DNA from: Spirochaetia bacterium
Lineage (GTDB): Bacteria; Spirochaetota; Spirochaetia; SZUA-6; Bin103
Length of the DNA stretch: 64,000 nucleotides
Assembly (NCBI GenBank): GCA_965198005.1
Contig: CBDAOI010000002.1
Span: 672,001-736,000 of the forward strand
Direction of reading: 5' to 3'
How positions within the stretch are numbered: the stretch's first letter is position 1; every line of letters starts with the position of its first letter. The position numbers were made by a program. Below, piece by piece: positions 24,001 through 36,000 of the stretch.

Positions 24001-27000
24001 GACCGGACCGCGCTGACCTGGCTGCCCCAGATGCCAACAGGTTGCGGGGTCGGTGCTGATTTCATCAACTCCGAGTGCAAACGGTTCGCTGAGCAACTCA
24101 TGGTCGTTGCCCGGCCAACGGCCGCGATCGCCGATCACGAGGATAGGCTCGTCGCCAACCGTCTCGCGTAGCCGTCTAACGACGTTCATCTTGGACACGC
24201 CGGGCGCAACGATATCCACCGAATGGCTGGAGCGGGTGACGGCGACTCCCTGGATGCCGGTTGTCCGGATCACTTGATGGGCGAGATCCCAAAGTCGACA
24301 CTCGCGCATGATCCTTGTGGCCTCAAGCGTGATTTGTAAGGGGCGCTCTTCCTGGCAGACGAATTCAGCAAGCTCTGGCTGATGGCGCAATGCGTGTGCA
24401 AGTGGCCGAAGGCAATCGTGGGCTCTCTCGGTTCCATCCGGCGAGTCGTTGTTATCGAGCGACGCGACTTCAGCGCCGTTGTAGTATCCAACGAGAATGA
24501 GAGGCCAGAGCGGGCGAGCAAGGCGCTCCTGAAGGTCGCGTCGGACCGATGCGCCGCGGCCAGTTGCGATCCCAATATACGCACCGGCGCTGGCTAGGCG
24601 AGCGAGTTCGGAGGCCATTTCCGGATCCACGGGTTCGGAGCGACGCCGGGTATCGACCACCGTTCCATCGTAGTCGAGAACGACTCCGGCGAATCGAGCG
24701 TCCCGCAAACGGGCAAGGAACGCGGTGAGCGCATCGTGCCAGCGGCCGATCTCCGTTAGCGTGGCTACGTTACTTTGATCGACGTTTGCTTTCCGCGCGA
24801 TCGCTGCGGACACACGTGGCGTAAGACGCGACGACCCGGTAGCGCACTTGGAGCGTGGGAGACTCAAGTTATAGAGTCTACGTCCGAACTCGGGGACGCC
24901 GGGACGTCCGGGGTCGATCCCCCGGATGCATCCAACCCATCCCGTGATCCTCAACGCTGCGAGCAGCGATGCAAGTGCTACTGCACTCGGCCCACCCTGG
25001 AAAACGATCCGTGCTTGGGGGACGCCGATGGGAATCAGGTCAAGCGTCCGCTCGGCGAGCACGCGATCCGCACTTGTGACGAAGGCGAGCACAGCGCTCG
25101 TGCCGCTGCGCTTGGCGAGCCAATGATGTCGTCCGTGGGCGAAGTTCCGGTAGTCGGCAAGCTGAACGTGGCCCAGCGCGGCCTCCGTAAACTTCGACTC
25201 GAGATCGATCGCTCCAATCCGCGTTGCAGGGCCATGAAGGACGAGTGTGGTGGGCCGCGTCCAGAGCGGAGCTGTGGTCGCTTCCCACGCTTCCAGGTCA
25301 GCGGTGGCATCCCGAAGCAGCGGCTTCAGTTGGTCCACCGTGTCCCGCCAACCCTTATGTGAACCGAACTCGGCAGCGTAGGCTCGGGTCAGAAGCGAGG
25401 TGAAGCCGAATAGCGAATTGGTGGCGAGGAAGCCGTCCTTGCCGGCGGGTGGTGGGTAGAGGAGCAGGTCGACGAATGCGTGCTGTCGGCAGAGGTTGAC
25501 CAAAGGACTGACCTCACGCCCGCATAGGACGGCGATCTGGCGCGGCTCACGTAGGATCAACGTCTCTGCCGCCGCCATGATGTCGTTGTTGCTCCCTCTA
25601 GCGCTTAGCAGCCATGTGGCGATGGTCGCATCGAGTGGCTCGTCAGTTGCGTCGAGCGGCGTGGCCACCGTGGATAGGAGGCCCGTGTAGCGCTGATGCA
25701 GACCGGCTAGCGCATGGGCACCGGTGAGTGATCCCCCGGAACCGATTACTCGAAGCGGCGAACGACCGGCGACACGAACGGCTTGTTGCATAGGCCGGAG
25801 GTCGGCTTCCTCTGCCCAAGCGAACGTCTCGGCCAGCATCGCCATCTCTCCCGTATATGGCCGTGCCATGGTCGCCTAACTGCCCTCCCAGGCTGTCCTC
25901 GTCCAGTGACGCACAAGATGGACACAGGATGGTGGAGTCTCGTCGCTCTTGCAAGGACAGGGAAACCGGACCTGCCTGGAGCAAATCTCGCTGCGCGCGC
26001 CGGGCGTGACCCGCGCCCAGGTGGAGGCGGCGGCCGACGCGGTGGGCGCGACCCGGTTCATCCGCGCCCTGCCGCGCGGCTTCGACCACGACGTGCTGGA
26101 GGAGGGCAAGTCGCTCTCCTCGGGCCAGAAACAGTTGCTGGCCTTCGCCCGCGCCTTCCTGCTCGACCCCGGCGTGGTGATCATGGACGAGGCCACCGCC
26201 AGCGTCGACGCCGAATCGGAGCGGGTCATCGAGACCGCGCTCGACACTCTGCTGCACGGCCGCACCGCGATCATCATCGCCCACCGCCTGTCCACGATCC
26301 GCTCGGCGCAACGCGTCCCGGTGCTCCACCACGGCCGCCTGACCCCACGGCCGCTACGGTGCTGGAGGCCGGCACCCACGCCCACCTCCTGGCCCACGAC
26401 GGCGTCTACGCCCAGATTGATGATCGGCTGCGAAAGAAGGCGGAGAATGGCTGGACGTTGTCTCGATTGTGGGTGATGGGACATCTCGGCGGCGTCCCGG
26501 ATGTCTGAACCGCTACGTATCGCGGCAGTCACGTTGCGGCCCGAGGGTTCGGCTGCGTTCGGCTCCGCGTCGACAGGTAGGACGGGCGCAGGATGGGGTG
26601 GGGTCTATAAACGTTCCACGGCCGCTGGGGCCGGTGTCAGCTCACGTCCGATCGTGGGGTGGTTCTACGCGCACGTCGGGCAGCCATGCCAGCCACGACG
26701 GCAGGTACCAGTTCCCGCGGCCCAGGATCTCCATGGTGGCCGGCACCAGGATCGAGCGCACCAGCGTCGCATCGAGCAGCACCGCGACGGCGAGCCCGAA
26801 TCCCACTTGCTGGTTGATGATGGTCTTCCCTGACGCGAAGGCGCCGAACACTGCGACCATGATCAGAGCAGCCCCCGTGATCAACCCGGCGGTGGAGCGC
26901 AGCCCATACGCTACCGCGTCCGCATTGTTCCCGGTCTGATCGTAGCGCTCGCGGATCCGGCTCAGCAGGAAAACATGGTAGTCCATGGAAAGACCGAAGA

Positions 27001-33000: not shown

Positions 33001-36000
33001 CGGCCAGGATGGCCACCGCCGCCGCACCCTGCGTGATCTCCGCCTTGCTGCCCGGCGCGTAGCGCGCTTCGTCGGTGCAGATGATCAGACCGCGCTCCCC
33101 ACCGGCACGACTCGCGCCCAGCATGGCGCCCACGCTCAACAAGGCGATCGCACCGCCGGCGCAGGCGTGTTTGACGTCGAAGGTGGAGATCGCTTGGGAA
33201 ATCGGAAAGCCGGCACGCTGCAGCATTCCGTGGACGTAGGCGGCAATCGGCTTGGCTTGGTCGATGCCGGTCTCGGTGCCCACCACCAAGTAGCGCAACG
33301 AGGCGACGGCGGCGGCATCCAGCCGTACCAGGAGTTGAGCCGCCGCCTGCGCGGCCATGGTCGCAGTGTCCTCCCAGCAATGCGGGAAGCGGATCGACAC
33401 TTGGCCGGTTCGGCCCCGTGCGCGCTCCAGCGCAATCGCCCGCTGCGGGTCCTGCCGCCGGTGACGTGCAATGATCGTATTGAGCGGTATTTTTGGTCGC
33501 GGGATGTGAACGCCGATGTCGCCGATCCCGAGTGTCGCCTGCATCAATGAAACCCGCCGCCCGTTAGTCCCATGCCATTCAAATCTCCCTCCAAACAGAG
33601 TGAAAAACAAAACACTGTTTGTCAACAAAAATGCGTAGCCTCGGGACACATTTTTGGGTCCATACAGGTCGGGAATTCGGGTGTACGTTTCAGGAAGTTA
33701 CTCTAGCTCATATTCCCGTTCTTCAGGTTCCTGAATTGATGTTTTGTTCCTGGTATTGTCTGTTAACTTCGGGAAACCGGGACGACCACAAACCGGCGGC
33801 GCGAATTCGCTCGACGGATCTGAAAAGCGATTGGAGAACCCGCGAATTACTCTACCGGCGAGCTACTCGAGCGAGCCTCGCCTTTCTGCGCTGCGGAATT
33901 CGACGATTTTTCAATGAAGTCACGAACGGCGGGAAGAAATGGGTGGCTTACCGGTATTTCGTAACCGTCGGTAAGGCACAGCAGCATCCGGTGATCGCGT
34001 CTCACCAGATGCCGGATGTGCCGAGACGCCACCCAGTAGGATCGATGAATCCGCATCCCGCAATCGCCGAGTGCGGCGACCGCGTCCGCCAGCCGCATCA
34101 AGACGACGACCGAACCGGACGTCGTGACCACTTCAAGGTAGTGCCCGGACACGTGTACGTATACGACATCCTGCCCCACCGGTTCCGGCAGGCTCTCCAG
34201 GAGCCGCTGCGCTTCAACCGGGCGGATGTGAAGCGCGGCGTGTCGCGGCTGCTTGCCCTCGACTGCGTCGTCGCTGTCGCGATGCGCATCAGCATCCGGT
34301 TGCTGCGCGTCCGCTGAACCACTCGAATCGTCAACGGTTGCCCGCTCGCCCTTGTCGGCGAGTCCCTCCGCGGGTCCAGGGAGAGGAATCTCGTCACCGT
34401 TGGTGTCCTGACGATCAGCGGAGGAGCCTGCAGATACATCGTCCGGAGCAGGTTGAGCGGGGGTCGTGCTGTCCTTGAGAGCAAGCAGGTCGCGACGGCC
34501 GAGACGCAGCAGGAGCACGTAGAATATCAGCGCCGCGGTCCAGAGCAAATTCATGGCGTTTGCGACGTAGAGCTCCAGCATTCCGTCACCGGGCGCGCGG
34601 CCCTCGTGCAGCAAAGCATACCCAGCGTACATGATCGCGGTGCAGAGTACAGCCACAATCGGAGCGGCAACTGCAAGTACCGCCATGCTCTGGAACTTTG
34701 AGCGGAACCTCGACAGATAGAGCAACAGGGCACCACAAGAGTAGCAAATGAGCAGGTCCGAGCAGCCGACGAAAACCGAGAATCCCAGGCGCTGGAGCGC
34801 GCTCATCGTGTGCGTCAGGTCCATAGGGTCCCACAACGTGAACAACGCCGTGAGTACTACGATGATGGAGAGAGCAAGCGGGAGCATGCTCAGTTTCAAT
34901 AGCTCTTGATACGCGTAGCGCATCTCCACATGGCGGTTCATACATCACTCCCATTCGGGGACTCTACCGAGCAAATCAGGAATACAGGAATAGCGGGCGA
35001 CATGACTCGACTAATTCGGGAATCCGGGTCCCGAGGAATCGGGAATTGCTTGGATACCACTCATCATTCTCATTATTGACGATGCGACACGGATCGTCAA
35101 TAGCGCGCACTGCTCTTGCTTCATTGCTTCACCCGAAATCTACACGAACGGAACTTGCGTACCACCTCTGTCTCTGTCGATAACCTGCCGGACCACGATC
35201 AATCACCGGCAGGCACGGTAGAATGCAGCATGAGTCGGCACATTCACTCCGTGACACCCAAGACGACGCGATTCGATGCACGGGCATCCTCCAATGCCCG
35301 GCACTTTCGGGGCAGTGACCGGTTCGGATTCGACGCGCCCGATTGCCTGGGCCGGCGCAGCGGATCCTGCTAACGGTTGACGCGAGGCCGGTCGATTACC
35401 CGCGCAAGCTGCAGCACGGCCGGTTCCATGGCGCCCTCCGGCACGGCGGCGTAGCCCAGGTGCAGCCCCGGCCGCGCCCCCGGTCCCAGCCAGTACGGGG
35501 ACAGAGGCCGCAGCGCGAGGCCGGCGCGCCGGCCGGCTTCGGCGACGGCGCAGTCGTCCACGCCATCGGCCAGCCACGCCGCCACCTGCATCCCCGAGTC
35601 GGTCGGCGCGAGCTCCAGCAGCCCCGCCAGATGCCTGCCCTCTCGGTCAAGTGGTAGGTAGTCATCGATGCTCTGGTCGTCGCTGGCGTTACGCGACTCG
35701 CGCCATACTCCGAGTAGCCCAGTCGAGGGAGATGCCGAAGCTACCGTCAGCGCAACCATGGGCTCATCGCCACTTGCGCCGAGAGCAGCGACTTCTGGCG
35801 GCACGCTACGGCCCGGCGCGGCGGTCAGGCGACGGCGGCCGCCGTTCACCCAGATGGTGGTCGAGGGCTGCCCGGAGCACGTTTGTGAGTCGGCGCTGGT
35901 GCGCATGGACGCCGGCTCCCGACTCCCGACAGCCAGACGCTCAAAGGGCCTGGAGGCGGGGGCGCCGACTACGTGCTAACAGGCCGAGAAATCGGAGCAC

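Follow-up and report, generated by a model that had tools for sequence, protein, structure and literature searches.

Among the closest described enzymes, Lcp is, in the available part of its description, an extracellular and catabolic protein that cleaves the C=C bonds of cis-polyisoprene (PDB entries 5O1L and 5O1M; PMC5522427), and MpaB, in the accessible portions of two reports, cleaves the trisubstituted olefin at the end of a trans-prenyl chain, giving an aldehyde (PMC6900556; bioRxiv 10.1101/524025). Nro1 is a further C=C-cleaving member of the family. On the squalene side, hopanoid clusters unite either route to squalene (hpnCDE or sqs) with shc and an RND-superfamily lipid transporter, HpnN. 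In many bacteria, genes for making squalene are present but a cyclase is not. The bacterial sterol pathway with BstABC likewise begins with an O2-dependent step on squalene and includes an MMPL-family exporter, according to the available part of its description (PMC10942540), and an isomerase is joined to squalene synthase in a single chain in Phaeodactylum tricornutum, as far as the accessible text of that report goes (PMC12168105). A literature search conducted largely outside subscription journals returned no publication linking the oxygenase family to squalene.

In the window (the whole 64,000-nucleotide stretch of a Spirochaetia genome that was analysed), five ORFs, all on the minus strand, form a cluster at 26642..34941 with tight spacing from the HMG-CoA synthase (HMGS) to the MMPL transporter; ORFs and domain profile scores confirm the five-gene cluster reported in the earlier note. 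We propose, with a probability of about 0.5, that it encodes a cyclase-independent branch of squalene metabolism, in which an oxygenase cleaves a C=C bond and a shortened, polar squalenoid is exported. Its gene order is repeated, as had been claimed, in one other genome (G018), the sole case among 41 related genomes, and oxygenase and squalene synthase matches are confined to the identical two of these 41. An assembly artefact as the source of the cluster was ruled out, because the fusion described below occurs in nine clusters and the order recurs in G018; contigs from three runs cover 30 of 30 bins of the stretch, each of them shorter than the whole. The second copy reported on contig C4 retains an intact fusion gene, but the remainder is decayed or missing (HMGS disrupted by deletions, the LytTR and MMPL genes absent, the oxygenase ending after 73 aa), so that it is a truncated duplicate with 99.8% identity. 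An assembly error is an unlikely source of this copy, since the deletion joint is seen in runs of two studies.

The first ORF (33847..34941, 364 aa) encodes a protein with four N-terminal TM segments predicted by hydropathy and a C-terminal DNA-binding LytTR domain (PF04397, 54 bits), and this membrane-anchored protein is the probable regulator of the cassette. A LytTR gene also lies upstream of HMGS in G018 (61% identity) and adjoins the oxygenase in only one of 75 genome loci. A sigma-70-like match 5' of the gene (35072..35100, minus strand; TTGACG-17-AATAAT) is a candidate promoter; the promoter scan there gave one site against 1.7 expected in shuffles, which is chance level, as was the terminator scan. 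The 302 bp before HMGS (33545..33846, minus strand) hold six TTCC(C/T)G / C(A/G)GGAA sites, against 0.14 per 100 bp genome-wide, and the equivalent G018 region also has six; as the pattern was picked post hoc, after inspection, these repeats are a lead only, as a candidate LytTR operator.

The HMGS (32267..33544, 425 aa; PF01154/PF08540) has the HMG-CoA synthase 5hwp as its best PDB match (E 4e-42), scores below the TIGR01835 cut-off (260 versus 360) and contains the E91, C128 and H257 motifs, which we take to be catalytic. It is the second HMGS copy in the genome, with a 51% identical paralogue on contig C3. The next ORF (30025..32262, 745 aa; TIGR02151 + PF00494) fuses a type-2 IPP isomerase (IDI2, approximately aa 11–355) to a single-enzyme squalene synthase (SQS, approximately aa 385–718). 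The IDI2 part scores 320 bits against a TIGR02151 cut-off of 281, matches IDI-2 in the PDB (E 1e-51) and contains MTGG, HLN..QE and KE.G.G, presumably type-2 isomerase motifs; GADGTNW replaces the usual G.GGT.W in 10 of 10 aligned fusions. It shares 79% identity with the stand-alone IDI2 of the same genome. The SQS part scores 183 bits with PF00494 and 113 bits (E 2e-32) with TIGR01559, under the equivalog cut-off of 287, which weakens only its formal membership of the squalene synthases; the values previously given for both domains were reproduced. Its top ten PDB matches are squalene synthases or farnesyltransferases (E 1e-21 to 1e-15), versus just 1e-6 for dehydrosqualene synthases, two Asp-rich motifs are present (DTVED at 428 and NILKD at 579), and relatives with 49–55% identity are fused to squalene-hopene cyclase (SHC) or, at one locus, adjoin it. 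From its sequence, the domain appears closer to SQS than to CrtB/CrtM, and NADPH-dependent squalene formation is predicted.

The AlphaFold model of the fusion has a pLDDT of 45. As had been counted before, the fusion occurs in nine clusters, here among the 80 clusters in the matches listed, and it is a lineage-specific trait that is not central to the system. The diatom P. tricornutum has a type 1 isomerase, and NUDIX-type IDI-SQS fusions also exist in bacteria (clusters P0035 and P0047), whereas the isomerase of the cassette is the FMN-dependent type 2; its fusion is recent and independent of the other IDI-SQS fusions. One SQS-FPPS fusion was also seen among the loci.

The oxygenase gene (28866..30041, 391 aa) starts with a 17-nt overlap with the 3' end of the fusion gene. 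The protein matches PF09995 with 68.4 bits (cut-off 23; atlas 0.99), and its AlphaFold model (pLDDT 89.6) resembles Lcp both in Foldseek (E 4.6e-9, TM 0.64) and in VIA (Z 31.2, versus 19.8 for t-anethole oxygenase and 3.3 for the next, unrelated fold), with 340 aligned residues, an rmsd of 3.3 and 16% identity. The globin-like fold, the proximal haem His (H175, Lcp His198), the distal Arg (R141, Lcp Arg164) and both Asp–Arg salt bridges (D33/R172 for Asp56/Arg195 and D37/R179 for Asp60/Arg202) are common to LcpK30, as described in the available part of its report (PMC5522427). H175, R172, R179 and N145 are invariant in 62 of 62 aligned oxygenases, and R141 is retained in 61. The differences from LcpK30, as far as the available text describes it, lie in the biosynthetic setting of the clusters, in the absence of a Tat-like motif (62/62 in a simple scan) and of a TM helix or hydrophobic N-terminal segment in the cluster oxygenase (hydropathy), and in the active site: Lcp Lys167 is replaced by Gln, Thr168 by Asn (62/62), and Glu148 aligns with an invariant Ile (I124) in one alignment and with a gap in another. 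E118, kept in 57 of 62, is a candidate base only. MpaB and MpaB' share the Pfam family and a biosynthetic role and provide a model for the proposed reaction; in the accessible part of the mycophenolic acid work, however, MpaB is bound to the ER, and its substrate is a farnesylated phthalide supplied by a prenyltransferase (PMC6900556), whereas the cluster oxygenase lacks a TM segment and no such partner recurs among 66 neighbour representatives.

Membership of PF09995 predicts, by analogy, haem-b binding, O2 use and C=C cleavage, and oxidative cleavage is what we infer for this oxygenase, with two Lcp active-site residues differing. The unmatched Glu148 and Thr168 would also agree with action on squalene without cutting, in which a C30 hydroperoxide, allylic alcohol or epoxide is exported, sulfated in some lineages. 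Thalassobaculum-type loci, with the order oxygenase, sulfotransferase, catalase-related haem protein and hpnCDE, point the same way, since a sulfotransferase requires a hydroxyl and small catalase-related proteins can handle lipid hydroperoxides. However, a catalase-like gene occurs in only 4 of 75 loci, an SDR gene and cysDN follow the sulfotransferase in other sulfotransferase loci (3/75), consistent with an aldehyde being reduced and then sulfated, and the characterised family members covered (Lcp, MpaB and Nro1) all cleave C=C bonds; oxidation without cleavage is therefore considered unlikely, and cleavage is retained as the preferred reaction.

The link to squalene was assessed in 75 genome loci from approximately 70 genomes, among which there is kinship; this sample differs from that of the earlier note, and the counts cover the oxygenase's own subfamily. 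Squalene genes lie within 8 kb of the oxygenase in 37 of the 75 loci, in nine named phyla, versus an arithmetic chance of approximately 0.4% for a given single-copy locus to fall in a 16-kb window of a 4–5 Mb genome. The two routes, a single SQS (21 loci) and HpnC/D/E (16 loci), never occur together. IspH (18/75) and DXS (6–7/75) accompany the oxygenase at other loci, and HMGS and IDI2 do so in the source genome, which encodes HMGR but yielded no DXR match, indicating the mevalonate route; the supply genes thus fit the pathway of the host. The earlier objection that most oxygenase loci lack a nearby synthase largely falls, because all 37 genomes checked, 36 of them without a synthase at the locus, encode a synthase-family gene somewhere; in 30 such off-locus regions, HpnE was adjacent in 21 and a single SQS was present in five. 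Against the link, squalene and RND genes were found in 10 and 23 of 40 further loci, in only 7 and 25 of 79 metagenome loci, and in 3 and 14 of the 33 metagenome loci of at least 12 kb. Among 20 proteobacterial carriers, 19 have PF00494 (all HpnCD(E) or SQS), one has no synthase match and one has canonical SHC.

In Dehalococcoidia (401 genomes), approximately one in six of which carries the oxygenase, every one of the 69 carriers has PF00494, compared with 100 of the 332 non-carriers, and the oxygenase occurs in none of the 232 genomes without a synthase-family gene. This distribution bears on the proposal that the oxygenase degrades excess or host-derived squalene or polyprenyl imported by an RND–LolA-like–DUF1302 set. 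Lcp and Nro1 are themselves catabolic, DUF1302/DUF1329/RND sets have been linked with uptake of hydrophobic substrates, and many carriers belong to sponge-associated lineages, common ones among them; but a scavenger would have no need of its own synthase, precursor-supply genes have been drawn into the clusters, and no recurring β-oxidation family was found among 66 neighbour representatives, so that a catabolic role seems improbable. The tie between oxygenase and squalene is stronger than previously claimed, and gene context provides good support for an oxygenase acting on self-made squalene and coupled to an RND/MMPL transporter.

As the earlier note stated, no squalene cyclase was found in the source genome (90% complete): neither SHC nor squalene epoxidase and oxidosqualene cyclase (OSC) was detected. 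Phytoene synthase is indeed a separate gene, as crtB lies in a crtY-crtI-crtB cluster on contig C3; a carotenoid-cleavage or apocarotenoid cluster was ruled out on this basis and by the absence of crtI/crtY beside the synthase in 194 loci. SHC occurs at none of the 75 oxygenase loci, in contrast to hopanoid clusters. A role of the oxygenase as an alternative squalene epoxidase feeding a cyclase is unneeded, because the source genome has no cyclase and each of the four long cyclase ORFs examined in carriers already includes a flavin epoxidase. Carriers with such epoxidase–cyclase fusions or with SHC may use a cyclised substrate.

More generally, the substrate could be another isoprenoid: a hopanoid or sterol side chain, a hydroxy or presqualene intermediate, or a farnesylated acceptor as for MpaB, which, in the accessible part of its description, cleaves a farnesyl chain borne by an aromatic core. 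Canonical SHC in 28 of 68 Dehalococcoidia carriers and a close oxygenase in Methylovulum psychrotolerans, from a group known for sterols and hopanoids, are in keeping with this. Against it stand the source genome without cyclase or epoxidase, the lack of a PF13243 match in 34 of the 50 carrier genomes searched, out of 71 (canonical SHC in seven only), and the absence of a recurring prenyltransferase among the 66 neighbour representatives. To our knowledge, squalene is also the sole free end product common to HpnCDE and a single SQS. Another isoprenoid is accordingly regarded as very unlikely, and squalene as the more probable substrate. Of the Dehalococcoidia genomes that lack canonical SHC, 21 of 30 have the oxygenase within 10 kb of a synthase-family gene, compared with 0 of 27 genomes that have canonical SHC, a pattern that may reflect one to three events.

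The MMPL-type RND transporter (26642..28831, 729 aa; PF03176, 271 bits) has 12 TM segments and is an orthologue of the oxygenase-adjoining MMPL of Chloroflexota (approximately 61–63%), whereas its local identity to the HAE3-type RND found elsewhere is only approximately 25%. RND/MMPL/AcrB proteins of three distinct types occur in 59 of the 75 loci. None of these transporters is an HpnN (40 and 76 bits, cut-off 752), and the match to BstA is 24 bits versus 1400; in further contrast to the sterol system, as described in the available part of its report (PMC10942540), the source genome lacks a flavin epoxidase and OSC, and the partners at oxygenase loci are LolA-like and DUF1302 proteins, although a DUF1302 partner was not found in the source genome. 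As RND/MMPL genes adjoin the oxygenase gene more often (59/75) than squalene genes do (37/75), and as the fold is similar to that of globin-coupled sensors, so far as their available description shows, squalene itself might be exported with the globin-fold protein as a non-catalytic carrier or O2 sensor; the strongly conserved distal Arg and polar distal pocket, and the range of partners (three unrelated transporters and sulfotransferases), are more in line with an enzyme than with a docking partner and make this highly improbable. The best explanation of the spirochaete cassette is a mosaic of a Chloroflexota-type oxygenase (in a quick tree) and MMPL, an SQS of the oxygenase-linked clade and an IDI2 nearest to the host copy. 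No conserved aldehyde-processing gene was found beside the oxygenase. The Mo-dependent aldehyde oxidase oxiAB is a partner of Lcp; such an oxidase was unconvincing as a partner here (three close and six distant matches in 75 loci).

In the proposed pathway, HMGS and the IDI2 domain would increase the supply of IPP/DMAPP in a host that uses the mevalonate pathway, FPP would come from a housekeeping prenyl synthase, and the SQS domain, identified as such by its matches, would convert it to squalene. The cytoplasmic oxygenase would then add O2 across a trisubstituted C=C bond to give an aldehyde and a ketone, most simply, by analogy with MpaB, at the terminal bond, yielding acetone and a C27 trisnorsqualene aldehyde that may later be oxidised, reduced or, in other lineages, sulfated. 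MMPL would extract the resulting amphiphile from the inner membrane, and the RND–LolA-like–DUF1302 set of most diderm relatives would move it across the envelope; viewed as an operon, the oxygenase would occupy the slot of the squalene-hopene cyclase. The earlier proposal that an oxidatively cleaved squalene product is exported is thus partly supported: gene context backs the substrate and the transporter coupling, with cleavage and export, favoured over uptake, as proposed extensions.

More tentatively, the cassette might represent a third use of squalene that is widespread in bacteria, alongside hopanoids and sterols, and spread by transfer over at least nine phyla: linear nor-squalenoid aldehydes, acids or sulfates serving as RND-exported envelope amphiphiles or host-directed signals, and a possible bacterial source of seco-squalene natural products from the sea. 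Turbinaric acid (C27) and secosqualene were named from brown algae. The branch of oxygenase and transporter suggests a hitherto undescribed class of bacterial lipids that derive from squalene but lack hopanoid or sterol rings, and offers a concrete, testable answer to how a large set of cyclase-less bacteria use squalene. If correct, the products may be new lipid biomarkers, and a soluble cutter of all-trans squalene would be a useful biocatalyst. Most PF09995 oxygenases are uncharacterised, and for one subfamily of them squalene is a likely substrate in nature; of 8,000 scored candidates, 2,165 clusters match at E 1e-40. The cultured carriers Thalassobaculum litoreum, Methylovulum psychrotolerans, Oceanibaculum indicum and Azospirillum griseum make lipidomics and knockouts feasible.

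The five genes that the earlier note had grouped into one cluster were recovered as open reading frames with the corresponding domains on the minus strand, running from 34941 to 26642. The first, a LytTR regulator (from 34941; 364 residues, PF04397) with four transmembrane segments, is separated by a 302 bp spacer from HMG-CoA synthase (HMGS; 33544–32267). The fusion of type-2 IPP isomerase and squalene synthase (IDI2-SQS; 32262–30025) begins 4 nt past the HMGS gene and overlaps by 17 nt the reading frame of a 391-residue PF09995 oxygenase (30041–28866), which is followed by an MMPL transporter with 12 transmembrane segments (28831–26642). 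The proposal that isomerase and squalene synthase form one chain likewise held: the isomerase part of the 745-residue protein scores above the NCBIfam cut-off, the ten best PDB matches of its C-terminal domain are all squalene synthases, far ahead of dehydrosqualene synthase, and 9 of the 80 clusters listed in the homologue search are fused. The synthase domain scores under the TIGR01559 cut-off, and its relatives at 49–55% identity are fused to squalene-hopene cyclase (SHC). TTCC(C/T)G sites are repeated before HMGS (33545–33846) and before the regulator (34942–35369), are also enriched before HMGS in G018, the family relative carrying the cassette, and represent a candidate LytTR operator.

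The predicted structure of the oxygenase (pLDDT 89.6) matched latex clearing protein (Lcp) over 340 residues with a Z score of 31.2; for t-anethole oxygenase the score was 19.8, and unrelated folds reached at most 3.3. The active-site and salt-bridge residues of LcpK30, as described in PMC5522427, served as the reference. In an alignment of 62 members, the proximal histidine (H175 in the window oxygenase) and R172/R179 never vary, R141 is retained by 61, and D33/D37 correspond to the salt-bridge aspartates. Lys167 and Thr168 of Lcp are, in contrast, replaced by Gln and Asn, and no acid aligns with Glu148, for which E118 (kept in 57/62) may be a replacement. Neither a transmembrane helix nor a Tat motif was found. 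The kept haem-site residues, the changed Lcp residues and the lack of helix and Tat motif together place the protein, as judged from alignment and model, in PF09995 with a predicted intact haem site, but outside Lcp and MpaB in the strict sense. A non-catalytic role of this globin-fold protein is the least probable of the alternatives.

Squalene genes lie within 8 kb of the oxygenase in 37 of 75 GTDB loci from about 70 genomes, spanning nine named phyla; the route is a single SQS at 21 loci and HpnC/D/E at 16, and never both together. In genomes with no synthase nearby, one was present elsewhere in all 37 searched, and the 30 distant loci fetched included HpnE in 21 cases and a single SQS in five. 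Among 401 evenly drawn Dehalococcoidia genomes, all 69 with the oxygenase fall inside the 169 with a PF00494 synthase-family gene, and, in the 57 carriers for which coordinates are listed, oxygenase and synthase gene lie within 10 kb in 21/30 genomes without canonical SHC, whereas they do so in 0/27 with it, nominal P values for the counts from this class overstating the case because the sampled genomes are kin. The oxygenase is rarer in Alphaproteobacteria (12/401) and Gammaproteobacteria (2/400); HpnCD(E) or SQS is encoded by 19 of the 20 proteobacterial carriers checked and canonical SHC by one. Domains, fold, haem ligand, gene linkage and dependence on a squalene route are established. The substrate is very probably squalene, the one end product that the two routes have in common, and a different isoprenoid is improbable. 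No crtI or crtY was found near any of 194 oxygenase loci. IspH (18/75 loci) and DXS (6–7/75) are the MEP counterparts of the HMGS and IDI2 of the window cassette.

By analogy with Lcp, MpaB and Nro1, the reaction is probably cleavage of a C=C bond, most simply the terminal one as in MpaB, which would give acetone and a C27 aldehyde, and the product would then be exported. An RND-superfamily gene is present at 59/75 loci (MMPL 8, HAE3-type 47, AcrB-type 5), and 41/75 have a complete set of HAE3, LolA-like and DUF1302 genes. Turnover or uptake is quite unlikely. The layout is that of a hopanoid cluster in which the putative alkene-cleaving globin stands where the cyclase would, and no cyclase was found within the 75 loci; among 50 carrier genomes, canonical SHC is present in 7 and 34 gave no hit. 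Squalene as substrate, cleavage and export taken jointly have a probability of about 0.5. Oxygenation without cleavage is unlikely, although less so than the other alternatives. In Thalassobaculum-type loci, an inositol-monophosphatase-family gene lies upstream of a run of oxygenase, sulfotransferase, catalase-related protein and hpnCDE, while three others have oxygenase, sulfotransferase, SDR, cysD; both arrangements imply a product that would be hydroxylated and then sulfated. Against the squalene-cleavage reading stand the metagenome loci (squalene genes in 7 and RND in 25 of 79, many of them short; 3 and 14 of the 33 of at least 12 kb), several of which lack any recurring neighbour, the counts at 40 additional loci (10 and 23), the lack of a conserved aldehyde-handling gene, the absence of the DUF1302 partner from G000, the genome holding the window, and carriers with a cyclase: canonical SHC is present in 28/68 Dehalococcoidia carriers, and some carriers have epoxidase-cyclase fusions. 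Every part of the cassette belongs to a known family; no description of this oxygenase family acting on squalene was found in the literature covered, most subscription journals lying outside it, and there is a real chance that the cassette defines a new bacterial lipid class derived from squalene.

As the earlier note had stated, no cyclase was found in G000 (90% complete), and phytoene synthase is indeed separate, crtB lying in a crtY-crtI-crtB cluster with an HMGS paralogue alongside. DXR and squalene epoxidase were not found either. HMG-CoA reductase adjoins a mevalonate-diphosphate-decarboxylase-like gene, and the fused IDI2 shares 79% identity with a stand-alone copy. Within 41 related genomes, hits to the oxygenase and hits to the squalene synthase fall in the same two. 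In G018 the reported gene order was confirmed, with 74–81% DNA identity across the five genes but different flanks, so that the unit behaves like a mobile cassette. The second fusion copy reported on contig C4 is the only intact gene of a truncated 99.8% duplicate of the cassette (C4:331701–334805), whose deletion joint is present in sequencing runs from two studies. In a quick tree, the window and G018 oxygenases nest in a Chloroflexota clade (support 99) that carries the same MMPL type. The SQS domain falls in a clade (support 98) mostly of oxygenase-linked synthases from other phyla; the cassette is therefore a mosaic. The fusion itself is a local event, paralleling NUDIX-type fusions of bacteria and the diatom IDI-SQS described in PMC12168105. 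A cluster relative at about 90% identity occurs in a run labelled sponge metagenome, and many carrier taxa have sponge-linked names; free-living carriers also exist.

Several further arrangements were observed. The carotenoid cluster at the end of G000 contig C3 (L080:11834–19738) comprises crtY, crtI, crtB, a further desaturase, a Rieske-DUF5914 protein and its own HMGS paralogue, and shares an 'HMGS booster' layout with the squalene cassette. Oxygenase paralogues in tandem pairs at L006–L009, L216, L241 and L242, matching the window oxygenase at about 53–57%, possibly cut different bonds or both ends. Partner-switch genes (STAS, SpoIIE or anti-sigma) neighbour the oxygenase at 8/75 and 7–8/40 loci (for example L023:5188–7338), and one database protein, P0293, is an oxygenase-STAS fusion. 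A short catalase-related haem protein lies between sulfotransferase and hpnC at L010:10219–11211 (atlas 0.97; PDB 3e4w, E 1.6e-8), and such proteins are found beside the oxygenase at 4/75, 7/79 and 3/40 loci. Single-chain squalene epoxidase-cyclase fusions of 1,120–1,208 residues occur in four oxygenase-carrying genomes (L274:2543–5902, L275:4319–7822, L276:4342–7731 and L277:4061–7684); L275, with an ERG4/ERG24 reductase, a P450 and a sterol methyltransferase as neighbours, is a probable bacterial sterol cluster. A squalene synthase-FPP synthase fusion is present at L044:13720–15702, and three alphaproteobacterial carriers have two PF00494 domains per frame of 611–623 residues (L260–L262). 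Upstream of the cassette, a type III restriction-modification-like locus (36737–43108, plus strand) comprises a fragmented methyltransferase-like start, an AAA/OLD-type ATPase and a ResIII subunit. Directly after MMPL, a six-gene operon (18909–25869, minus strand, GC about 56–59%) encodes a HAD/trehalose-phosphatase-like fusion, an unknown ORF, a PRTase-CE, an ORC-CDC6-like ATPase, a CARF-like protein (PADLOC E 3e-126) and a PfkB kinase, and looks like a nucleotide-based conflict or defence system. The operon lies between two directly repeated copies of the 3' end of an ABC transporter, 93% identical to each other (25985–26413 and 18404–18812), which suggests insertion with duplication.
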